Assembly (NCBI RefSeq): GCF_003334305.1 | Contig: NZ_QOWS01000021.1 | Length of the DNA: 64,000 nt | From: Escherichia coli | GTDB lineage: Bacteria; Pseudomonadota; Gammaproteobacteria; Enterobacterales; Enterobacteriaceae | Direction: 5' to 3' (one strand) | Made by a program: the position numbers and the translations under genes | Notes under the pieces: generated by a model | What the model was told of the DNA's origin: nothing | What the model saw: the letters and a program-made list of their open reading frames with translations, nothing else | The model's database searches: none | In this document: in pieces, positions 14,968 through 26,269 of the stretch | Numbering within the stretch: the stretch's first letter is position 1 | How the letters are laid out: each line of letters opens with the position of its first letter

Positions 14968-15254
14968 GCCTTAATAACCCCCTCTTTCAGCCAGATAACC
15001 TGCGTTCTCGCCATACCTTCCAGCGCGCATTCTTTTGCATACTCAGCATCGACAAAATATGTGCGGCGGTCGATTTCGTCGTGACAGGCAGAACATGCAA
15101 TGGTGGCAATCAGGTCTGGCGGTTTGATACCGGTACCGCACAATCCAGCCAGCCGGATATGTGCCAGTACTGACGTTTCAGGATTGCCATTACATACGCC
15201 AGGGATTCTTACCTGGCATTCCCGACCACGCGCTGCTTTTCTCAAATCAGCCAT
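14964..15254 (-). CDS. ybcO: YbcO (DUF1364, putative nuclease, Cys-rich)
   Basis: ORF 14964..15293 trimmed to [37 protein letters not shown]...; 96 aa. Confidence 0.85.
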
Positions 15255-15417
15255 GATTCCTCCTTGCTGCCAGTCGCAACCATTTTTTATCAACCAGGCT
15301 AGCGGTATATCCGAGCAGTGTTGGTATTTCGGATGGCTTCAGCTCAGGCTTACGCTTACGACGATTTGATACTCTGTAGATGTGCCCGTTCATGACACGA
15401 ATAAGCGGTGTAGCCAT
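15247..15417 (-). CDS. ninE: NinE
   Basis: Manual translation [56 protein letters not shown] (56 aa); stop overlaps ybcO start; below ORF-track length cutoff. Confidence 0.75.
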   Translation of the reverse strand: MATPLIRVMNGHIYRVSNRRKRKPELKPSEIPTLLGYTASLVDKKWLRLAARRNHG

Positions 15418-15872
15418 TACGCCTCCTGCTTATCGCGCAGCTGCTGGTATTCACAGCTCTGCGGAATTGTCAGGTGGCAGCCGATATTCATCGCCCAGGC
15501 TTCGACTTTGCACAGGAAGATGTACATCTCGCCGGTTTCCAGCTCTGACGTATGGCGGAGGGATTGGACGGTGGTGACCTCGCCGGACACGACATCTACA
15601 CGGTCTTTGCTTTCGTAGCCGAGATAGGTGTGCTTCATCGCGTCTTTGACCCACTCAGGCGTAGCGAAGGTCTTGCCGCGGGCGATGAGATATTCGCTGA
15701 TCTCCGTGTACCACATGTGGCTGAGCGCGTTCTGCGACAGGCTGCGCTTCTCGCGCCACGGCTTAACCTGCAGGCGTAAGCATTGCCCGGCATCCAGCAA
15801 TGGCTGAATCTGCTGGCCGATGGCCGCGAAGTTACCGCGATGGAGTTTGATGCCGTCTACTGGCAGAGTCAT
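15417..15872 (-). CDS. ninB: NinB recombination protein (YbcN)
   Basis: 151 aa MTLPVDGIKLHRGNFAAIGQQIQPLLDAGQCLRLQVKPWREKRSLSQNALSHMWYTEISEY... Confidence 0.88.
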   Translation of the reverse strand: MTLPVDGIKLHRGNFAAIGQQIQPLLDAGQCLRLQVKPWREKRSLSQNALSHMWYTEISEYLIARGKTFATPEWVKDAMKHTYLGYESKDRVDVVSGEVTTVQSLRHTSELETGEMYIFLCKVEAWAMNIGCHLTIPQSCEYQQLRDKQEA

Positions 15873-16136
15873 ACGGCCTCCCTAACGGAAACCGCAGAAT
15901 GCAGAAAATCGCAGGTGCATTTCTGCATCTGTGACAAGGTGATGAGTTCAGATTGTGGTCGCATTTAAGTCCCCTTAAATGCGCAGAAGTCACCGGAGTT
16001 GTTCAGGCTCCGATGAGAGGATTATGGCGGATTGATTACGATAAATCAAAACTATCTTGAAGCCAAAACAGTGATCTTCGCTTTAAAAACCTTGTATACT
16101 TTCACCTAATCACAGCCAGAACTATGGATCTAACCA

Positions 16137-16514
16137 ATGACCAACAAAGAAAACAAAGATAAATATATTAACAAGTTCAAGAAAGAGCTTTCAAAATATA
16201 TACAACCAACTGCTGGAGTGGACATTCAATTATTTAACTCTAAGGATGGTGGTGGTGTAATTAAAGCCACTTTGAATAGAAGTGGAAAAAGAAAATCATC
16301 TATTGCAGGTAATTTTACTAAATTAGGTGAGGCAATTACCTCGAGTGGGCAGAGGGTTTTTGGTGGTGATCTATCAAATGTAAATTTTTACGGAACAAAT
16401 ACGATTTTTGATGGAGATACAATATTTTTAATTAAATCACCTGATTCAGAGGAGTGGTCATCACAAAAAGCTTCCAAAGACGTAGAGGGCATCGTATTTG
16501 GAGGGAAAAAATGA
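16137..16514 (+). CDS. Hypothetical soluble protein (125 aa), moron gene 1
   Basis: ORF MTNKENKDKYINKFKKELSKYIQPTAGVDIQLFNSKDGGGVIKATLNRSGKRK...; AT-rich; opposite strand to neighbours; stop overlaps next gene start (ATGA); no family recognised. Confidence 0.55.
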   Translation: MTNKENKDKYINKFKKELSKYIQPTAGVDIQLFNSKDGGGVIKATLNRSGKRKSSIAGNFTKLGEAITSSGQRVFGGDLSNVNFYGTNTIFDGDTIFLIKSPDSEEWSSQKASKDVEGIVFGGKK

Positions 16515-16939
16515 TTAACATTACTACTAAGGATGGCACTCAAGTCAGTGGTGAAGTAAGAGATCTAGTAATTCTTCTTGAAACTGATGGAAAAACGGTG
16601 TCTGATTATTTGCAGCCAATCCCTCCCAAAAAAGATACACACTGGAGCATGATTTTCATTCCGGTAGCAATTTATATACTACTTAATCTTGTATACATTA
16701 TTGCTCACCCATTATTTCCTGAAAAATATCTAAAAACATCAACATCTATATTTCTATTCATTTCCTTCATATTAAGTGCAATAGTAGCATATTTTGTTTT
16801 CCATAAGCATAAATCTGCCACTCTATCCATATGCAGCTTAGTGTTCTTAGTGTTAATTGTAGGTGCTAACGTAGGGTTTATCAGTTACAGCGACCTAACA
16901 CAAAAAGCGACGCAAAAATTAGATAGTTTGTCTAAATAA
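16511..16939 (+). CDS. Hypothetical membrane protein (142 aa, three predicted TM helices), moron gene 2
   Basis: ATG at 16511 preceded by GGAGGG SD; MINITTKDGTQVSGEVRDLVILLETDGK... then hydrophobic segments WSMIFIPVAIYILLNLVYIIAHPLF, IFLFISFILSAIVAYFVF, LSICSLVFLVLIVGANVGFISY. Confidence 0.6.
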   Translation: MINITTKDGTQVSGEVRDLVILLETDGKTVSDYLQPIPPKKDTHWSMIFIPVAIYILLNLVYIIAHPLFPEKYLKTSTSIFLFISFILSAIVAYFVFHKHKSATLSICSLVFLVLIVGANVGFISYSDLTQKATQKLDSLSK

Positions 16940-17017
16940 TTATGTTGCCATGCGAAGTATGCATGGCTGCATGTCTGCCTTCCATTTAAAATGGGCTAAG
17001 ACCTATAACCCTAAATA

Positions 17018-17731
17018 TTATTCTTTATTATCTTCTTTACCACTTCGCACCATCCCGTTCGACTTGTTGCGGTTGTACTTCGCCTGAAGCAGCTGGATTG
17101 GCGTCGGGCCATGCTCGGCAGCCGGTGCTGCAATCGCCCGGCGCACAGGCGGTACTGGTTTGCCCTCGGTGACGCGCCTCTCCCACATGTCCAGCAGATC
17201 GCCGGCTTCACGCGCCAGCTCACCATGCGTTAACTGGCGCTCTGTGCTGCGGTGGCGCAGTTCGACGCAGATGTGGTACATGACAGGCTGTGACCACGGG
17301 AAATGCTCGCTGGAAGTGAATTCGAAGGAACGATTACGCCAATCCCAGTATTCGGTTATGACTTGGTCAACAGTGATACCTAACGCCCCGCCACTCTGCT
17401 TACACCACGCTACGAACTGGCCGGGCGACGGCAGGAATGGTCGCTCCTGTCGGCGGGCCACGCGCATTCCGGCGTTAACCTGTTCCATTGTGGTGATCCC
17501 GTTTTCCCGGAAAGCCAGAACCCACTGGCGGCGAATTTCGTTCAGTTCGTTCTGGTCACGGTTAGCCAGGCTCGCAGGGAAAGTTGCCAGCAACTGGCTG
17601 AATACACCGTTGATGATCTGCGCTACCTGCTGTACCTGCGGCTTTTCGTCGTACTGTTCCGGCATGTTGTTGGCGATCCGGCGCATCTGCTCACGGTCAA
17701 AGTTAACCATCTGTGCGGCGATGTTTTTCAT
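17018..17731 (-). CDS. P: Replication protein P-like (DnaB helicase loader), lambda-like N-terminus with divergent C-terminal half
   Basis: 237 aa MKNIAAQMVNFDREQMRRIANNMPEQYDEKPQVQQVAQIINGVFSQLLATFPASLANRDQ... matches lambda P over the N-terminal ~110 aa; remainder differs from my recollection of lambda P. Confidence 0.8.
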   Translation of the reverse strand: MKNIAAQMVNFDREQMRRIANNMPEQYDEKPQVQQVAQIINGVFSQLLATFPASLANRDQNELNEIRRQWVLAFRENGITTMEQVNAGMRVARRQERPFLPSPGQFVAWCKQSGGALGITVDQVITEYWDWRNRSFEFTSSEHFPWSQPVMYHICVELRHRSTERQLTHGELAREAGDLLDMWERRVTEGKPVPPVRRAIAAPAAEHGPTPIQLLQAKYNRNKSNGMVRSGKEDNKE

Positions 17732-18657
17732 AAATCCACCCCGTAAATCCAGTCAGTGTTCGTCAGGTCGAGTTTTGGTTTGCCGGCTGTCACGCCAGCC
17801 TGTTGCTTGTTTCGGTTGATTTCGAGCTGGGTCCACTTGTCGCGGAGTTTGGCCGGACTCAGCACGTTACCGGACCAGAAGTTGTCCTGGCAGGCCCAGC
17901 GAAACAGTACACACATGTCGCGGTGGTTACGTCCATCACGTTCACGCATCAGACGGATATCGTTAGCCCACCCTGCAAAATTCGGTTTTCTGGCTGATGG
18001 TGCGATAGTCTTCACCATGTCAAACATCCACTCTGCGGCGGTCAGGTCTTCTGCTGTCCCCCACTTGCTGCCGTTCTGAATCGCAGCATCCGCTTTCACC
18101 ACAGGAAGGTCGTTTTCTGGCAGGTCAGAGGATTCGCCAGAATTCTCTGACGAATAAGGTTTTATATTGTCTTTTGTTAGTTTGTCTTTTGTGTTTACCG
18201 GATTCGGGTAAGTGCCTTTACCTGATTTGGGTAAACTTTTCTTACCTGATTCAGGTAAATTTACCTCTTTCAGGTAAACTTTATTTTTCTTACCTGATTC
18301 GGGTAATGTTGACCATTCACTGACCACATTATTAATGCCTATATTCCGCCCGCTCTGAATAAAAATCCCACGCTTTACCAGAACACTTTTTGCAGCAGAA
18401 CACTTGTGCGGCAATATCCCGGTCAACTCGGAAAGTTGCTCGTTGCTCACCCAATCCAGTTTTTTATTAAAGCCATATGTTTTGCGCATGACAGCCAGGA
18501 AGACCAGAAGCTGGTGCTGTGTTAATCCGGCCAGCATTACAGCTTCCAGCAACTCATTTGCAATGCGCGTATAACCATCATCGAGATCTGCCACGCGCGG
18601 CTCCTTTTGTGCCGCATCCGGCACAGGAAAATTGAATATCTCAGCAGTGTTTGCCAT
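17728..18657 (-). CDS. O: Replication initiator O-like
   Basis: ORF 17728..18747 trimmed to ATG at 18657 with GGGAGG SD (MANTAEIFNFPVPDAAQ...); C-terminus ...ANDIRLMRERDGRNHRDMCVLFRWACQDNFWSGNVLSPAKLRDKWTQLEINRNKQQAGVTAGKPKLDLTNTDWIYGVDL matches lambda O; iterons inside the gene. Confidence 0.85.
   Translation of the reverse strand: MANTAEIFNFPVPDAAQKEPRVADLDDGYTRIANELLEAVMLAGLTQHQLLVFLAVMRKTYGFNKKLDWVSNEQLSELTGILPHKCSAAKSVLVKRGIFIQSGRNIGINNVVSEWSTLPESGKKNKVYLKEVNLPESGKKSLPKSGKGTYPNPVNTKDKLTKDNIKPYSSENSGESSDLPENDLPVVKADAAIQNGSKWGTAEDLTAAEWMFDMVKTIAPSARKPNFAGWANDIRLMRERDGRNHRDMCVLFRWACQDNFWSGNVLSPAKLRDKWTQLEINRNKQQAGVTAGKPKLDLTNTDWIYGVDL
18195..18307. repeat. Replication origin iterons (five ~18-bp direct repeats) inside the O gene, with adjacent AT-rich tract at 18130..18194
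   Basis: tttaccggattcgggtaa, tttacctgatttgggtaaa, cttacctgattcaggtaaa, tttacctctttcaggtaaa, cttacctgattcgggtaat; encode the repeated LPESGKK peptide in O. Confidence 0.8.
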
Positions 18658-18743
18658 AATTCCTCCCGCAATGAGTGTGTTACGATTTGCACCTGAAAGT
18701 CGGTTCTGTTCCCGCAGACCGACTTTCGCCATTTTTAAACCTG

Positions 18744-19289
18744 TCATATTGCCCCCAACATGGTGGTAACCATCGCCATCAATGGACCAGCCAGATCCGG
18801 GTCCACACGAAACATCGACACAATACCTTCACTCATCTCCTTCAGTTTCTGGTGGCGTGGTGCGTTGAGAATGACAGCCTGTTTTGCCTCACTGAGTTCC
18901 TTTTCCATTTCAGCCAACCGAGTCATGAAGCTATCCTGCTCAACCAGGTAACCGCGATATTCCAGCGGTAGTACCGCCAGAATTGCCGGGGTCAGTTCAC
19001 GCACGTTATTTCGGTATTTTTCAGAATCGAATTTGTTATCGAGGAAGCGGAACAGCTTCTGGCGTGCACGGCTGACATCATCAGGGAAATCGATGGTGCC
19101 GCCGCCCTGTGCTCGATACTCATTCACAATGAGTGCGGCAACAACATCCTGATTATCTGCAGCCGACCAGGCGCGGACGGCATCACGGATTTTTTCGTGG
19201 CCTGGCACCTGTTTTGTTTGAGAACGATTTATCACCGCAGTCGGGCTAAATCCGCTAGTCTGTTGGTATGTAAGTGGTTGCATAGTCAT
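18744..19289 (-). CDS. Hypothetical regulatory protein at the cII position (possibly YdaT-like)
   Basis: 181 aa MTMQPLTYQQTSGFSPTAVINRSQTKQ...NEYRAQGGGTIDFPDD...; placement directly downstream of cro-like gene; family assignment uncertain. Confidence 0.5.
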   Translation of the reverse strand: MTMQPLTYQQTSGFSPTAVINRSQTKQVPGHEKIRDAVRAWSAADNQDVVAALIVNEYRAQGGGTIDFPDDVSRARQKLFRFLDNKFDSEKYRNNVRELTPAILAVLPLEYRGYLVEQDSFMTRLAEMEKELSEAKQAVILNAPRHQKLKEMSEGIVSMFRVDPDLAGPLMAMVTTMLGAI

Positions 19290-19313
19290 TGCCTTATCAG
19301 TTAACGCCGCAGT

Positions 19314-19541
19314 TTAGGCGGCAGAATTACTCGCGTTAAACAATGGTGCGAGGTCGGGACGAATATCTGCTGGTTTAATCTTTCCACCAGTGGCTGAGAC
19401 AATTTTCATTACATAGCGGGCATCAATTCCGCCACCGTGTAGCCAACGCCAAACTGTGGGTTGGGCTACACCGCATAGATCTGCCAGTCGTTTTTGACTA
19501 CCTGTAATACTGATTGCGAGTTGAATGGTTTGATTTGTCAT
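19314..19541 (-). CDS. Cro-like HTH repressor (YdaS/Cro family)
   Basis: ORF 19314..19547 (TTG) trimmed to ATG at 19541: MTNQTIQLAISITGSQKRLADLCGVAQPTVWRWLHGGG...; divergent from cI; AGGA SD. Confidence 0.75.
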   Translation of the reverse strand: MTNQTIQLAISITGSQKRLADLCGVAQPTVWRWLHGGGIDARYVMKIVSATGGKIKPADIRPDLAPLFNASNSAA

Positions 19542-19572
19542 TATCAATTCCTATTGGTATTGCAATGAATGA

Positions 19573-19601
19573 ATAATAGCAATGAGTATTAACCCAAGCA
19601 A
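19573..19601 (-). promoter_or_regulatory. Candidate PR promoter (-35 TTGCTT, 17-bp spacer, -10 TATTAT on minus strand) overlapping OR operator repeats
   Basis: Minus-strand ttgctt gggttaatactcattgc tattat upstream of cro-like gene; AGCAAT/ATTGCT repeats overlap. Confidence 0.55.
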
Positions 19602-19615
19602 TAGCAAAACGTGTT

Positions 19616-19643
19616 TTGACCATCAATACGCAAGCGTATAAAT
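19616..19643 (+). promoter_or_regulatory. Candidate PRM promoter (-35 TTGACC, -10 TATAAAT region) giving a leaderless or near-leaderless cI mRNA
   Basis: ttgacc at 19616..19621 and tataaat at 19637..19643; cI ATG at 19652 has no SD, as for lambda PRM/cI. Confidence 0.45.
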
Positions 19644-19651
19644 TAAAACTT

Positions 19652-20344
19652 ATGAAAAAAGAAACTCTTGCTGATCGCTTAAATCTAGCGATGGAACAAT
19701 CTGGAATGTCTCAAGGCGCTCTTGCAAAGGCGTCTGGCGTAGCTCAACCCACAATCTGGAGACTGACAAGCGGCAACGCGCGCGGCTCAACAAAAATTGT
19801 TGAAATAGCTAATGCATTGGGTGTTCGAACAGAATGGCTCTCTTCAGGCATAGGCCCGATGAGAAATGACGGTCAACAATCAGGGAAGCCTGCTGTCAGC
19901 CATTCCAAATACTTCAAAATTGACGTTCTTGATATAGAAGTCAGTGCCGGGCCGGGTGTAATCAACCGTGAGTTTGTAGAAGTTCTACGCTCGGTTGAAT
20001 ACTCGTTTGACGATGCTCGTCACATGTTCGATGGCAGGAAGGCGGAAAATATCCGCATCATTAACGTGCGTGGTGACAGCATGTCAGGAACGATCGAACC
20101 AGGTGATCTGCTGTTCGTTGATATCACGGTTAAATCTTTCGACGGTGATGGTATCTATGCGTTTCTGTATGACGACACCGCCCATGTAAAACGCCTGCAA
20201 ATGATGAAGGATAAGCTGCTGGTTATCTCTGATAACAAGAGCTACTCACCGTGGGACCCGATCGAGAAAGACGAGATGAACCGCGTGTTCATCTTCGGGA
20301 AAGTCATCGGGAGCATGCCGCAGACATATAGAAAGCATGGGTAG
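19652..20344 (+). CDS. cI: CI-type prophage repressor (N-terminal HTH, C-terminal S24 LexA-like autopeptidase)
   Basis: ORF 19616..20344 trimmed to ATG 19652: MKKETLADRLNLAMEQSGMSQGALAKASGVAQPTIWRL... and C-terminal ...VRGDSMSGTIEPGDLLFVD...HVKRLQ (Ser/Lys dyad motifs). Confidence 0.88.
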   Translation: MKKETLADRLNLAMEQSGMSQGALAKASGVAQPTIWRLTSGNARGSTKIVEIANALGVRTEWLSSGIGPMRNDGQQSGKPAVSHSKYFKIDVLDIEVSAGPGVINREFVEVLRSVEYSFDDARHMFDGRKAENIRIINVRGDSMSGTIEPGDLLFVDITVKSFDGDGIYAFLYDDTAHVKRLQMMKDKLLVISDNKSYSPWDPIEKDEMNRVFIFGKVIGSMPQTYRKHG

Positions 20345-20473
20345 AAATCAGAACAAAATTATGCACTTCGCTTTTCAGCTTACTGTAGTAAGGCAATAAA
20401 TTAGGCTTGACGTTAGCTATCAGGTGCACAACAATAATTGTTGAATAATAGGTTTTTTTAACTAGGTGATAAC

Positions 20474-21613
20474 ATGGCAGCGGTTGAATTTCAATTGTCT
20501 AGGAAGATGATTGATTGGATAGCAAATTCTCAAGGAGTTTCTATCGAAACTCTTGCTGACCAAGTCATGCCCAAAAAGATTAATAAATTTCTTAACGGAG
20601 TGGTAAGTAAATCCGCAGCAGAAAAACTGGCAAAAATTGGAGGAATCCCTTTCGGTTTTTTATTTCTTGAAACGCCACCAACTCCAGCCAAACCCAAGAT
20701 CCCTGACTTAAGGCAAGCTATAAATAGCCGTGAGTTAGGAAAAGATTTTTTTGATGTTTACTATGATATAGAATATAAACTTGAGTGGTACAAAGACTAT
20801 TTAAGAGAAAATGGTAATGATGATCCACTCGATTTTATTGGTAAATTTAAATTTAATAGAAAATTAAATTATAAGGTTGTTGCTACAGACATAGCAAACA
20901 CAATACATTTTGATATACAAAAAGAGATAAAAAATGTCACTTTTGAGAGCTATTTTTCTAAAGTGGCAAAACTAATAGAAGACACTGGCGTATTAGTTTT
21001 CAAGAATGGTGTTGTGGGTAATAATAATAAAAGAAAACTTGACACGCGAGAGTTTCGTGGTTTCTGTATATCTGATAGCGTTGCTCCGATCATTTTTGTA
21101 AATAGCTCGGACGCGTTATCTGCGCAGGTATTTACATTATTTCATGAGGTGGCTCATCTTTGGCTTGGAGTCGATGGAGTCTCTGGGTGGGACACAGAAA
21201 AAAACATAGAATCTTTTTGTAATAAAGTTGCTGCTGAAATCTTAATGCCTGATAATCTCTTCAAATCTTTCTGGCTTAATGCATCCAGCGATAATAATTA
21301 TTATCGAGTAAAAGAGGTTTCTAAGTTATTTAAGGTTAGTGATTTCGCTTGTGCAATCAAAGCGTTACAATTAGATTTGATAGAAAGAAACACTTTGGAG
21401 ATAATTAAAGATCAAGCTTACAATAAGCCCAAAAAAGAATCCAATGGTGGTTCTTTCTTTAACACATTACCTGTTCGTAACAGTCCAAAACTTACGAATA
21501 TAATAATTTCCAAAGCAATGTCTCAACAATTACCATTAAGGGAAGCAGGCGTACTGCTAAATGTAAAAGCAGATACAGTTGTTGAATTTTATAAAAAACG
21601 AGAATCTCTATGA
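20474..21613 (+). CDS. HTH (XRE-like) domain fused to ImmA/IrrE-family zinc metallopeptidase (COG2856/DUF955-like), 379 aa
   Basis: AGGTGA SD 4 nt upstream; N-terminal HTH-like segment (SIETLADQVMPKKINKFLNG...AEKLAKIGGIP); HExxH motif in FTLFHEVAHLWLG and downstream E...AAEILMP motif typical of ImmA/IrrE peptidases; AT-rich. Confidence 0.75.
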   Translation: MAAVEFQLSRKMIDWIANSQGVSIETLADQVMPKKINKFLNGVVSKSAAEKLAKIGGIPFGFLFLETPPTPAKPKIPDLRQAINSRELGKDFFDVYYDIEYKLEWYKDYLRENGNDDPLDFIGKFKFNRKLNYKVVATDIANTIHFDIQKEIKNVTFESYFSKVAKLIEDTGVLVFKNGVVGNNNKRKLDTREFRGFCISDSVAPIIFVNSSDALSAQVFTLFHEVAHLWLGVDGVSGWDTEKNIESFCNKVAAEILMPDNLFKSFWLNASSDNNYYRVKEVSKLFKVSDFACAIKALQLDLIERNTLEIIKDQAYNKPKKESNGGSFFNTLPVRNSPKLTNIIISKAMSQQLPLREAGVLLNVKADTVVEFYKKRESL

Positions 21614-22122
21614 TTCATAATGGAAAATTCTTAATTGATAGTAATGTCTTCATAGAGGCAAAAAACTTTGCATATAACTTCAATTATTGCAAAATATTTT
21701 GGGATTTTCTTCTCGCTTTACACATTAATGGTCTGATTTATAGCATTAATGCTGTAAAAAAAGAACTATGTGCAAAAGATGATCCATTGTGTAAATGGAT
21801 TAAAGAAGAGTTACCATCATCATTCTTCGAAGATGAGCATAGTTCAATAGAAAATTATGCAAAGTTAATAAATTGGTCAACTAAATTAGATGTTACCGAA
21901 AAGGCAAAGTTTGATTTTGCAAGCCATGAAAAAGCAGATGCTTTTTTAATAGCCCATGCGATGACACATGGATATACTATTATTACCCATGAGAAACCAT
22001 CCGGTGGCAAACCTAAAAAAAGAATAATGATCCCGGATGCTGCTGCTTCTCACGGCGTTAAGACATTAACACTATATGAATTTCTTCCAAGATACGCTAG
22101 TCATAATTTTTCTTTGAAATAA
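21610..22122 (+). CDS. PIN-like (DUF4411-type) putative nuclease, 170 aa
   Basis: Start overlaps upstream stop (ATGA); N-terminal FLIDSNVFIEA resembles the first acidic PIN strand; ADAFLIAHAMTHGYTIITHEK resembles a later PIN motif; AT-rich; domain call from memory of DUF4411. Confidence 0.65.
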   Translation: MIHNGKFLIDSNVFIEAKNFAYNFNYCKIFWDFLLALHINGLIYSINAVKKELCAKDDPLCKWIKEELPSSFFEDEHSSIENYAKLINWSTKLDVTEKAKFDFASHEKADAFLIAHAMTHGYTIITHEKPSGGKPKKRIMIPDAAASHGVKTLTLYEFLPRYASHNFSLK

Positions 22123-22127
22123 AACGT

Positions 22128-22154
22128 CCCGGCCACCGTGCCGGGTTTTCTTTT
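22128..22154 (+). terminator. Rho-independent terminator after the two-gene cassette
   Basis: cccggccaccgtgccggg hairpin followed by ttttctttt immediately after the stop at 22122. Confidence 0.75.
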
Positions 22155-22276
22155 GCCTCCCCTCATCACACACACCGTTCAAAAAACCACCACAACCCCG
22201 CTTCAGTTATCGCTATGCGATGCAAGTCACAAAATTAATTCTTTTTGCTATCAAATATTTAATATCAAAACACATC

Positions 22277-22323
22277 TAGCAATAGCAATAAGTATTGATA
22301 TCATCAATAGCAATAGCTATTAT
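22277..22323 (+). promoter_or_regulatory. Candidate PL promoter (-35 TTGATA, 17-bp spacer, -10 TATTAT) with OL operator repeats
   Basis: ttgata tcatcaatagcaatagc tattat at 22295..22323; AGCAATAGCAAT repeats shared with the cro-cI intergenic region. Confidence 0.6.
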
Positions 22324-22396
22324 CACCATGTCGCAACAACACAACGATACGGCAATCACCTGATTCACCGTTGCGATGACCGCTTAGATCCGCAGC

Positions 22397-22807
22397 TTGA
22401 ATTTCAGCAGGCTCCGGGGAGTGCGAGGGGTGAAGCGGACGCGTGAACGTCGGTGTGACCAGCTGAAATCAACTCAACACTTCATACCTCAGTCGCTTCA
22501 ACGAGGCGGCTTAGTTATGACAACCGGCGGCCATCCACCGCCTGAATACGCGCAGAAGTCTTTATATGTTCAGCAGCCCAGCTTACGGGCAGGAGTTTTT
22601 ATGGTTCATCAACATTACGGAACGCAGACCGTTAATCGCGGTGCGGTCATGCCAGGAATGCTGGTCAAACACAAAGATGGTACCTGGACTGCATCAGCTA
22701 ATTTACGCGGACGGCTTTATCTGCATCGCGGCATCGAGCGCACTTATACCCGTGATTTGCTCGTAGAAGTTTTTCTCGACGGACGCGGTAACGGCCTGAA
22801 TCACTAA
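22397..22807 (+). CDS. Hypothetical protein, first ORF of PL operon (Arg-rich N-terminus; possible N-like or Kil/CIII-region protein)
   Basis: ORF with TTG start; N-terminus ...RLRGVRGVKRTRERR...; no confident homology recalled. Confidence 0.3.
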   Translation: MNFSRLRGVRGVKRTRERRCDQLKSTQHFIPQSLQRGGLVMTTGGHPPPEYAQKSLYVQQPSLRAGVFMVHQHYGTQTVNRGAVMPGMLVKHKDGTWTASANLRGRLYLHRGIERTYTRDLLVEVFLDGRGNGLNH

Positions 22808-22883
22808 CCCCCCTTTCCTGTTTTCCTAATCAGCCTGGCATTTCGCAGGCGATATTTTCACAGCCATTTTCAGGAGTTCAGCC

Positions 22884-23180
22884 ATGAACGCTTATTACAT
22901 TCAGGATCGTCTTGAGGCTCAGAGCTGGGCACGTCACTACCAGCAGATCGCCCGTGAAGAGAAAGAGGCAGAACTGGCAGACGACATGGAAAAAGGTCTT
23001 CCACAGCACCTGTTTGAATCACTCTGTATCGATCATTTGCAACGCTGCGGGGCCAGCAAAAAAGCCATTACCCGTGCGTTTGATGACGATGTTGAGTTTC
23101 AGGAGCGCATGGCAGAACACATCCGGTACATGGTTGAAACCATTGCTCACCACCAGTTTGATATTGATTCAGAGGTATAA
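22884..23180 (+). CDS. gam: Gam (RecBCD inhibitor), short form
   Basis: 98 aa [52 protein letters not shown]...; matches lambda Gam; upstream in-frame sequence also resembles the long-form N-terminus. Confidence 0.92.
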
Positions 23181-23185
23181 AACGG

Positions 23186-23971
23186 ATGAGTACAGCACTC
23201 GCAACGCTGGCAGGAAAGCTGGCTGAACGTGTCGGCATGGATTCTGTCGACCCACAGGAACTGATCACCACTCTTCGCCAGACGGCATTTAAAGGTGATG
23301 CCAGCGATGCGCAGTTCATCGCATTGTTGATCGTCGCCAACCAGTACGGCCTTAATCCGTGGACGAAAGAAATTTACGCCTTCCCTGATAAGCAGAACGG
23401 CATCGTTCCGGTGGTGGGCGTTGATGGCTGGTCCCGCATCATCAATGAAAACCAGCAGTTTGATGGCATGGACTTTGAGCAGGACAATGAATCCTGTACA
23501 TGCCGGATTTACCGCAAGGACCGTAATCATCCGATCTGCGTTACCGAATGGATGGATGAATGCCGCCGCGAACCATTCAAAACTCGCGAAGGCAGAGAAA
23601 TCACGGGGCCGTGGCAGTCGCATCCCAAACGGATGTTACGGCATAAAGCCATGATTCAGTGTGCCCGTCTGGCCTTCGGATTTGCTGGTATCTATGACAA
23701 TGATGAAGCCGAGCGCATTGTCGAAAATACTGCATACACTGCAGAACGTCAGCCAGAACGCGACATCACTCCGGTTAACGATGAAACCATGCAGGAGATT
23801 AACACTCTGCTGATCGCCCTGGATAAAACATGGGATGACGACTTATTGCCGCTCTGTTCCCAGATATTTCGCCGCGACATTCGCGCATCGTCAGAACTGA
23901 CACAGGCCGAAGCAGTGAAAGCTCTTGGATTCCTGAAACAGAAAGCCACTGAGCAGAAGGTGGCAGCATGA
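23186..23971 (+). CDS. bet: Bet (Red-beta single-strand annealing protein)
   Basis: 261 aa [48 protein letters not shown]...; matches lambda Bet. Confidence 0.93.
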
Positions 23972-25647: not shown

Positions 25648-25926
25648 ATGTTCAGAATCATTTTTCCTAACACCTGGTACGTCGACCACCACGGCACTCC
25701 CTGCAAAATCCTGCGTTCTACCCACAACAAAGTTCACTACATCCGAAAAGGCAGAACATGTATCGCCAGCATGTTCCGCTTTAATCATGACTTTGAACCT
25801 GTGAATAAAGCTGATGCAGATCAGATAGCAGAAGAGATCGAAACGGCAGAACACATTAAGAAGTTACGTGACATGCGTTCAAAAAGCAGAGGTAACCATG
25901 GAATCATACAGCCTCACACTCGATGA
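25648..25926 (+). CDS. Hypothetical protein (92 aa)
   Basis: ORF upstream of xis-like gene; no family recognised. Confidence 0.4.
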   Translation: MFRIIFPNTWYVDHHGTPCKILRSTHNKVHYIRKGRTCIASMFRFNHDFEPVNKADADQIAEEIETAEHIKKLRDMRSKSRGNHGIIQPHTR

Positions 25927-26269
25927 GGCCTGTCAGTTTCTTAAGATATCCAGACCAACCGCCACCAACTGGATACGAACAGGCCGCCTACAGGCAACAC
26001 GTAAAGATCCAACCAAGCCAAAATCTCCTTACCTCACAACACGGCAAGCCTGCATTGCGGCGCTTCAGTCTCCGCTGCATACTGTCCAGGTGAGCGCGGG
26101 TGATGGCATAACAGAGGAAAGAAAATGTCACTCTTCCGCAGAAATGAAATATGGTATGCCTCGTATTCGCTCCCGGGCGGGAAACGAATTAAGGAATCTC
26201 TTGGCACAAAGGACAAGCGGCAAGCTCAGGAGTTGCACGACAAGCGAAAAGCAGAACTCTGGCGAGTAG
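25898..26269 (+). CDS. Excisionase-like protein (Xis/AlpA-type HTH); reading frame continues into int
   Basis: [38 protein letters not shown]... directly upstream of int; unusually long overlap with int (about 145 nt), so 3' end uncertain. Confidence 0.45.

Follow-up and report, generated by a model that had tools for sequence, protein, structure and literature searches.

The window, that is, the whole stretch of 64,000 nucleotides of Escherichia coli DNA that was analysed, contains a prophage of 27.4 kb, which occupies the argU/DLP12 site in E. coli strain A7 (NZ_CP028767.1). The prophage carries gam-bet-exo, and its head and tail genes are lambda-like, in agreement with the earlier note, which had described its structural and recombination modules as lambda-like. 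The early region has the gene order cI(+) / cro(-) / cII(-) / O(-) / P(-), and its genes, together with a putative repressor promoter, are as follows:

17018-17731, minus strand: helicase loader P (PHROG 109, 4.3e-89)
17728-18657, minus strand: replication initiator O, directly downstream of cII (PHROG 277, 3e-161; TIGR01610 phage_O_Nterm; PGAP start 18657)
18744-19289, minus strand: phi80/YdaT-type cII, encoding 181 aa or, more probably, 179 aa from an ATG at 19283
19314-19541, minus strand: cro-like gene, 75 aa, a YdaS/Cro-family helix-turn-helix protein, ATG at 19541
19616-19644, plus strand: PRM-like promoter, TTGACC-N17-TAAATT, shortly before the start of cI (19652; promoter scan, consensus match only)
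19652-20344, plus strand: cI-like repressor with a helix-turn-helix and an S24 LexA-type autocleavage domain, divergent from cro

The earlier note had placed a YdaS/Cro-family gene of 75 codons ahead of one of 181 codons, and both are indeed found on the minus strand, the Cro-like ORF coming first. Judged by their sequences, these are real genes and not chance ORFs, because both proteins have strong profile matches and the larger one has many database relatives. The cro-like ORF, when delimited mechanically, begins at a TTG at 19547 and encodes 77 aa. For cII, the ATG at 19283 is a more plausible start than that at 19289, since the Shine-Dalgarno sequence AAGG (19292-19295) lies 8 nt before the former and only 2 nt before the latter, and since all aligned homologues begin at the former (M3 does not vary in alignment A1); RefSeq/PGAP likewise starts there, which gives a protein of 179 aa (WP_024216072.1). 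The divergent gene, named 'XRE family transcriptional regulator' by PGAP, matches PHROG 4 (5.2e-69) and PHROG 6201 'CI-like repressor' (2.3e-46), and its message would be nearly leaderless if it were made from the predicted PRM-like promoter. According to the PGAP annotation, the prophage looks partly decayed, with Rz and Rz1 pseudogenes and a fragment of xis, while int, cI, O, P and the genes for head and tail are intact.

The 75-aa protein is a Cro analogue. It matches the Pfam family YdaS_toxin (PF15943, 1.2e-14) and PHROG 35 'transcriptional repressor' (9.4e-24), with a weaker match to P22_Cro (0.005) and weak matches in the PDB to Cro (3bd1, 1.2e-3) and XPH1 (5w8y, E about 1e-3), all of which bears out its previous assignment to the YdaS/Cro family. 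Its sequence is identical to that of a protein of phage Perceval, and is 57% identical to HK639 cro and 32% identical to Rac YdaS.

The 181-aa protein belongs to the YdaT family. Residues 69-156 match Pfam YdaT_toxin (PF06254) with an i-Evalue of 7.5e-30, a domain that is also present in all of the listed homologues, and the protein covers the whole of PHROG 163 'CII-like transcriptional activator' (5.9e-67, profile positions 1-168/168); the profile search proposed in the earlier note thus led to YdaT_toxin, and no unrelated family claimed the protein. It is a full-length orthologue of phi80 CII, with 66% identity over residues 3-181. In tblastn searches against phage genomes, it is 97-98% identical to the products of genes annotated cII in Perceval, 4A7, Lambda_4C10, 1W, 3W, D2 and the PhiR series, and 73% identical to cII of CobraSix, 67% to that of mEp237, and 53% to those of HK639 and HK225. 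Identity to Rac YdaT is 35%, over 96 residues of the N-terminal half only. The previous statement that the gene is not the 97-aa cII of lambda holds, as the Pfam scan of the protein returned no Phage_CII match, and BLASTP with a lambda CII query returned no match even at E<=100. NCBIfam offers no model for the protein, and the PGAP product name is 'toxin YdaT domain-containing protein'.

These relationships also settle two points of nomenclature. The earlier note had called the pair Rac-like, which is right as far as the two Pfam families are concerned, but imprecise, given identities of 35% and 32% to the Rac proteins versus the much higher values for phi80 CII and HK639 cro. It had further regarded the identity of the 181-aa protein as unclear, namely a regulator of lysogeny or a YdaT-like protein. 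This is a false choice, since both descriptions apply; the identity is not unclear, because the protein is orthologous to phi80 CII and the near-identical relatives of the cassette already carry the annotation cII. The whole cI-cro-cII-O cassette is 96-97% identical to those of Perceval, 4A7, Lambda_4C10, 1W, 3W and the PhiR series. Going by sequence identities, the cassette is best described as a phi80-type cII joined to HK639-related cI and cro, because the 181-aa protein is 66% identical to phi80 CII, and the cI-like repressor is 45% and the Cro analogue 57% identical to its HK639 counterpart.

The structure of the 181-aa protein was modelled as a monomer by AlphaFold2 using an alignment of 40 diverse homologues (A3), giving a mean pLDDT of 85 and values above 90 over most of residues 29-180. 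In this model, residues 1-28 are disordered and residues 31-115 form a POU-like helix-turn-helix domain of five helices (31-44, 47-60, 72-84, 90-106 and 109-115), in which a long alpha2-alpha3 loop (61-71) precedes the recognition helix 72-84 with R81. A long alpha6 helix (121-140) lies at the place that matches the tetramer-forming helix of the solved homologues, and is followed by two further C-terminal helices, 145-162 and 164-180, which have no counterpart in the YdaT proteins of Rac and CP-933P. The C-terminal helices within 145-180 and the disordered N-terminus of 28 residues are specific to the phi80 subgroup. A Foldseek search against the PDB returned chains of 8bt1 or 3c4r as its top six matches, with a probability of 1.0, target-normalised TM scores of 0.64-0.69 and 27% identity, and the next match had an E value above 1. 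Taken together, the model and the Foldseek matches reveal a DNA-binding helix-turn-helix and a putative tetramerisation helix, and no features of an enzyme or a pore. Within the recognition helix, F80 and R81 hardly vary among the 40 diverse homologues; R81, which lies within QKLFRF, shows no variation in alignment A1 and a conservation of at least 90% in A3. The equivalent arginine (R60 in CP-933P, R57 in Rac) is needed for DNA binding (PMC9986795, PMC11879457), and the family tetramer is an antiparallel four-helix bundle of alpha6 (PMC9986795).

Across a large group of lambdoid phages, proteins of the YdaT family are known as the analogues of CII (PMC5917428, PMC8630535, PMC9986795, PMC11879457). 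[quoted passage not shown] Activation by CP-933P YdaT of a leftward promoter that lies between ydaS and ydaT was shown by Jurenas et al., who also noted the homology of this protein to phi80 CII (PMC8630535), and Prolic-Kalinsek et al. described the YdaT structure as a POU-type helix-turn-helix with a tetramerising helix, and footprinted the operator TTGATT-N6-AATCAA (PMC9986795). The putative PRE of CP-933P is placed in these papers at a position other than the one predicted below for the window, although no start site was mapped there (PMC8630535, PMC9986795). In Rac, Wons et al. found that YdaT binds ATGATT-N6-AATCAA over the ydaT start codon as well as the racR-ydaS intergenic region; leftward transcription into racR is activated 29-fold, an effect that depends on the box at the ydaT start and was assigned to a promoter about 190 bp from the box and not to a box-proximal one (PMC11879457). 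We found no usable experimental work on the binding sites of phi80 CII in the literature, and the phi80 GenBank record (JX871397) has no PRE or CII site annotated.

The nearest characterised relatives of the present protein are thus phi80 CII by sequence, and the YdaT proteins of CP-933P and Rac by experiment. Phi80 CII (PHI80_49, JX871397) is of the same length, is extended beyond Rac YdaT at both termini in the same way and has an identical recognition helix, SRARQKLFRFLDN, and its genome has the same order of cI / cro / cII / M3-like RNA / O / P. Phi80 differs in that the cI of the window is only 23% identical to its own and the cro 34% over 44 aa. Other cII genes that group with that of phi80 are those of mEp237, HK225, HK639 and CobraSix. 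CP-933P YdaT (8bt1) and its relative 3c4r share the Pfam family, the fold, the conserved recognition-helix arginine and the position after a YdaS-type cro, but the similarity of CP-933P YdaT is weak by sequence alone (E 0.002), and this protein of about 140 aa lacks the N-terminal extension of 28 residues and the C-terminal one of roughly 40 residues. The Rac pair YdaS-YdaT (K-12 b1357-b1358) comprises the same two Pfam families and diverges in the same way from a repressor gene; however, the Rac repressor is the small RacR instead of an S24-type cI, and the Rac replication genes are ydaU/ydaV instead of O/P.

Lambda CII (97 aa, Phage_CII) is an unstable-activator-type tetramer which turns on leftward transcription of cI, antisense to cro. 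It has the same map position and presumed role as the 181-aa protein, without detectable sequence similarity. In lambda, the CII site lies in the first codons of its own gene and oop lies downstream, and the same is predicted for the window. Lambda also possesses tR1/nutR, PI and PaQ, whereas no tR1/nutR lies between cro and cII in the window and no counterpart of PI or PaQ was found. The two proteins differ in their mode of binding, as YdaT is a 222-symmetric tetramer on an inverted repeat, while lambda CII is a dimer of dimers on the direct repeat TTGC-N6-TTGC (PMC9986795).

The gap between cro and cII is only about 25-30 nt. It leaves no room for tR1/nutR, and every firing of PR should also yield cII. 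A GC hairpin at 19306-19322 carries the cro stop codon in its loop, and is common to phages with unrelated Cro proteins that end in Ala-Ala; comparison with the annotated nutL core of phi80 gave no convincing resemblance. Among relatives of the region 22100-22620, no N or put annotation was found.

The regulatory elements that we recognise or predict in and around the pair are listed below:

16032-16049: exact match to TTGATT-N6-AATCAA, at -35 to -18 of a promoter TTGATT-N17-CATAAT that reads toward ninB
18632-18740, plus strand: oop/M3-like antisense RNA unit between cII and O, with a transcript from about 18667 ending in a hairpin and T-run
19218-19235, plus strand: predicted CII operator, TTGAGA-ACGATT-TATCAC, with 2 mismatches to TTGATW-N6-WATCAA, at cII nt +48 to +65
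19256-19268, plus strand: predicted leftward PRE-like promoter, -10 TAGTCT at 19256-19261, start at about 19268
19530-19547, no strand: candidate second CII operator, exact palindrome TTGATA-ATGACA-AATCAA overlapping the start codon of cro, the ATG being part of the spacer

The M3-like unit is collinear with the annotated M3 RNA of phi80, an oop analogue, and with the M3-like RNA of HK639. The promoter scan placed its promoter, TTGAAT-N17-(TG)CATAAT, at 18632-18660, and the folding energy of its terminator hairpin is -24.6 kcal/mol (z = -4.3). An Rfam search of 15000-23500 gave nothing relevant.

The predicted operator within cII reads GTGATA-AATCGT-TCTCAA on the minus strand (19235-19218). 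We surveyed 143 unique cro+cII stretches, taken from nine phages and 160 IMG/VR loci. No offset inside cII other than +48 matches with two or fewer mismatches, and 132 of the 143 have such a match there. Klebsiella-type relatives have a near-perfect box there, [CT]TGATA-AAGCG[AT]-[AT]ATCA[AG], in which an Asn-to-Tyr change preserves the W position of the operator consensus. Rare codons occur inside the box, namely an invariant ATA and, in Klebsiella-type relatives only, CGA, where the window has CGT. Conservation around the box is partly a coding constraint (the peptide L-x-Y/F-Q-Q). Both the +48 intragenic box and the TAnnnT described below are shared with phi80, whose box has 3 mismatches. 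In CP-933P, by comparison, the operator is found where ydaS meets ydaT and contains the ydaT ATG in its spacer, whereas the window candidate is located 48 nt inside the gene.

Downstream of this box, in the leftward direction, lies the putative PRE-like promoter. The -10 of the window, TAGTCT, matches the consensus at only 3 of 6 positions, and T-12, A-11 and T-7 (TAnnnT) are invariant in all 81 unique family sequences, always at 20 nt from the operator. Opposite A-11 is the third base of codon 9, which specifies Thr, Asn, Gly or Ser depending on the phage and has T as its last base throughout; opposite T-12 is the first base of the variable codon 10. This combination of a synonymous third position and a variable codon argues that TAnnnT is conserved at the level of DNA and not of protein. 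From the 20-nt spacing it follows that the operator centre would be at -41.5 of a start at about 19268, the classical position of a class II activator. In Rac, where the flanking sequence is unrelated, 20 nt likewise separate the box from a hexamer, TATGAT. In Tritos, a CP-933P-like phage, the box is exact and TAGTTT follows after a gap of 21 nt. The PRE candidate is the only composite of box and hexamer in the 27.4-kb prophage, where shuffles give 0.24. A search of the whole prophage for composites resembling PI or PaQ (box + 19-21 nt + TAnnnT) found none upstream of int or inside Q; a lambda-like regulon of three promoters (PRE, PI and PaQ) is therefore unsupported, since no second composite site was found.

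The sites differ in how closely they fit the operator. Relative to the strict TTGATT-N6-AATCAA, there are 0 mismatches at 16032-16049, 1 at 19530-19547 and 4 at 19218-19235; relative to the relaxed TTGATW-N6-WATCAA, there are 0, 0 and 2, respectively. The strict form with three or fewer mismatches occurs 31 times against 39.7 expected, and only the exact and one-mismatch occurrences are informative. The relaxed form has two exact matches in the window versus 0.02 expected per shuffled window; this consensus was derived from the ninB-upstream alignment. The box at the cro start is specific to the present cro allele, and some relatives carry half-site variants with one mismatch. Phi80 has no exact box at that place, and in nine phi80-type phages no box of the Rac/CP-933P kind occurs at a conserved place near cro. 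By analogy with Rac, where YdaT binds across the ydaS start (PMC11879457), the cro-start box is possibly a roadblock or a loop anchor, 312 bp from the +48 operator; the two YdaT-bound regions of Rac are similarly about 320 bp apart (PMC11879457), and the Rac box at the ydaT start also has the ATG in its spacer.

Upstream of ninB, the half-sites of the box and the -10 are invariant in nine phages, the 6-nt spacer is free to vary, and homology among these phages begins exactly at the box. In most IMG/VR loci with a phi80-type cII and enough downstream DNA, this box lies 3-7 kb downstream of cII. Among loci with at least 8 kb upstream, 18 have a YdaT-type cII, 3 a lambda-type cII and 2 neither. 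We asked whether the box is restricted to phages with a YdaT-type cII, and it is not: 4 loci combine it with a lambda-type cII, K-12 DLP12 has it although that prophage lacks a cII, and most Klebsiella-type relatives that carry this type of CII are without it. Because the box is not confined to YdaT-type cII, we do not claim it as part of the system. As a sequence match, it may nevertheless be a target of CII/YdaT repression and a functional stand-in for lambda PaQ.

On the basis of these data, we consider it likely that the 181-aa protein is a YdaT-family CII, a lysogeny-establishing regulator, and that the pair constitutes the rightward early operon of a phi80/HK639-type immunity region in an otherwise lambda-like prophage. 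After infection, this CII would be made from PR together with Cro, with no terminator between the two genes. It would then bind the degenerate operator (TTGATW-N6-WATCAA) that lies among the first 22 codons of cII itself, at 19218-19235, and, from -41.5 in class II geometry, activate the weak leftward promoter with its -10 TAGTCT and start at about 19268. The resulting transcript would run antisense through cro into cI, as does that of lambda PRE. At the exact operator over the cro start, the presumed tetramer may also block transcription from PR or loop the 312 bp between the sites, and cII expression is probably kept in check by the oop/M3-like antisense RNA made downstream of the gene. This operator/promoter model for phi80-type CII is a new prediction, drawn from sequence comparison. 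In a wider form, YdaT-type CII proteins, including Rac YdaT, would act by class II activation from a box-proximal PRE, the -10 of which is hidden in coding sequence, and would in addition repress the conserved ninB-Q promoter as a substitute for PaQ; we offer this wider form tentatively, as a possibility and not as the expected outcome. Its class II reading differs from the 'action at a distance' over 190 bp described for Rac.

The toxin-antitoxin reading, in which the pair is a YdaS-YdaT module and the 181-aa protein a growth-arresting toxin, derives from the Pfam names YdaT_toxin and YdaS_toxin and the PGAP product name, and overexpressed Rac YdaT is indeed toxic and causes filamentation (PMC11879457). 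The label, however, came from a prediction tool, and direct tests on the Rac and CP-933P homologues speak against it (PMC5917428, PMC8630535, PMC9986795); CP-933P YdaT in particular is not toxic (PMC8630535). In addition, the modelled protein combines a DNA-binding helix-turn-helix with a putative tetramerisation helix, Foldseek returned no toxin-like fold, and the gene occupies the cII position in temperate phages that form plaques. Toxicity on overproduction is likewise a property of lambda CII, which also counts against this reading, and we regard a toxin as extremely improbable.

A role of CII mainly as a repressor, which would silence rightward early and nin-Q transcription from the exact palindromes at 19530-19547 and 16032-16049 and leave the +48 site incidental, deserves somewhat more weight, but is still unlikely. 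Both exact operators are at positions typical of repressors, one downstream of the candidate PR and the other across -35 to -18 of TTGATT-N17-CATAAT, and the invariance of the ninB-upstream half-sites around a variable spacer points in the same direction. Rac YdaT also covers the ydaS promoter (PMC11879457), and YdaT is termed a repressor in one of the CP-933P papers (PMC9986795). On the other hand, the cro-start box is allele-specific, with half-site mutations in relatives, and the ninB-upstream box accompanies lambda-type cII in 4 loci, persists in the cII-less DLP12 and is missing from most Klebsiella phages with this CII. Activation by YdaT has been demonstrated experimentally in two systems, and the roles of activator and repressor are compatible. 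It is also conceivable, yet very unlikely, that cro and cII are intact but idle passengers of a decaying prophage, silenced by cI and without a role in lysis-lysogeny in this strain. The Rz and Rz1 pseudogenes and the xis fragment speak for this, and YdaT-type genes persist unexpressed in the cryptic prophages Rac and CP-933P (PMC11879457, PMC8630535). Against it, both ORFs are intact and encode products 97-98% (cII) and 100% (Cro) identical to those of plaque-forming phages, and the prophage also retains intact copies of int, cI, O, P and the genes for head and tail; moreover, this explanation concerns the state of the host element and not the identity of the genes. Even under the preferred reading of a YdaT-family CII, the circuit may never run in this strain, since the prophage looks partly decayed.

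The family is widespread. Megablast with the 804-bp stretch found matches of at least 95% identity in 2216 of 5426 complete E. coli genomes, and 720 of those 2216 carry the whole pair (at least 80% coverage). At the protein level, the 181-aa protein has 891 relatives at E<=1e-3 in a database clustered at 90%, and there are 112 clusters at 50% identity. The gene pair is already known as a widespread phi80/YdaS-YdaT alternative to lambda cro-cII and in itself adds nothing new; the new leads are the operator/promoter model and the box at the nin promoter, both of which are predictions. The RefSeq name 'toxin YdaT domain-containing protein' is misleading for a gene that is found in about 40% of complete E. 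coli genomes and that serves as CII in an immunity cassette of the phi80 type. This mosaic follows the lysis-lysogeny logic of phi80/HK639-type phages, with cII co-transcribed with cro and no terminator in between. If the prediction for the nin promoter is true, the ninB-upstream box would provide a late-gene brake that replaces PaQ, and would allow cross-prophage wiring, for example of Rac YdaT to the ylcH-ybcN promoter of DLP12 in K-12.

Upstream of ninB lies a promoter, TTGATT-N17-CATAAT, whose -35 element and spacer are made up by an exact palindrome, and a leader separates the two:

16021-16049, minus strand: exact palindrome TTGATT-TATCGT-AATCAA and promoter, upstream of ninB/ybcN (15417-15872)
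15892-16020, minus strand: leader with two hairpins, between the promoter and ninB
15892-15927, minus strand: terminator-like stems, after the two hairpins
23164-23181: operator-like sequence TTGATTCAGAGGTATAAA, one mismatch, at the gam-bet junction

The operator published for CP-933P YdaT, TTGATT-N6-AATCAA (PMC9986795), has the same sequence as this palindrome. Across nine phages and dozens of IMG/VR loci, the half-sites and the -10 element of this box are unchanging while the spacer is hypervariable, and homology among these upstream regions sets in precisely at the box. YdaT-type cII is enriched among loci carrying the box, in 18 of the 23 with at least 8 kb of upstream sequence, an association that is not exclusive. 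The same box is also found in the K-12 prophage DLP12, upstream of ylcH-ybcN.

Beside the experimentally defined YdaT-box of the K-12 Rac prophage, the leftward strand has a 20-nt gap followed by TATGAT (2152-2195 of locus L003), an arrangement that suggests a class II promoter proximal to the box; in the published interpretation, a promoter about 190 bp away is activated (PMC11879457).

Both hairpins of the ninB leader show compensatory changes across phage lineages. The first, CCGGAG...CTCCGG, has an invariant loop, CCUGAACAA; the second pairs GCGCATTTAAG with CTTAAATGCGC in some lineages and GCGCTAAACG with CGTTTATGCGC in others. The leader has no match in Rfam, and a small ORF (orf33/ylcH) is annotated at its position in phage 82 and K-12.

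The operator-like sequence at the gam-bet junction is likely a matter of chance. Most related loci retain it, probably owing to its place in coding sequence.

Other features of the prophage are as follows:

19306-19322: GC-rich hairpin GCCGC-CTAAACT-GCGGC, its loop containing the cro stop codon
20474-22122, plus strand: ImmA/IrrE-family metallopeptidase (379 aa) and DUF4411 protein (170 aa), directly downstream of cI
16137-16939, plus strand: two opposite-strand genes (125-aa protein and 142-aa predicted membrane protein), between P and ninB
10658-13810, 10983-11445, 25898-25963: iss, ompC-like porin, Rz/Rz1 pseudogenes and xis-like fragment

The hairpin over the cro stop is conserved in phi80, HK639, HK225 and CobraSix. 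The Cro proteins of these phages share nothing else, yet all finish Ala-Ala-stop; the hairpin probably marks the point in the mosaic at which the cII module is joined. It is unlike the nutL core annotated in phi80.

The metallopeptidase-DUF4411 pair occupies the rexA-rexB position, where the relative Perceval has other genes, and in PADLOC the metallopeptidase weakly matches capP (9.8e-15) and RmrA; the pair may serve in defence or in repressor cleavage. Between the cI operon and kil (22123-22600, plus strand), neither the window nor the 96%-identical phages have an annotated gene for an N-like antiterminator. For both cI and cro of the window the resemblance is to HK639, a phage with put-type antiterminator RNAs in place of N.

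Between P and ninB, Perceval carries a different insert (ren, emrE, a serine recombinase and a hydrolase); the 125-aa and 142-aa proteins have no match in PADLOC, the sole library tried.

The prophage also bears cargo genes, iss and an ompC-like porin. Since its lysis genes Rz/Rz1 are pseudogenes and the xis-like HTH gene ahead of int is present only as a fragment, the prophage may be defective.
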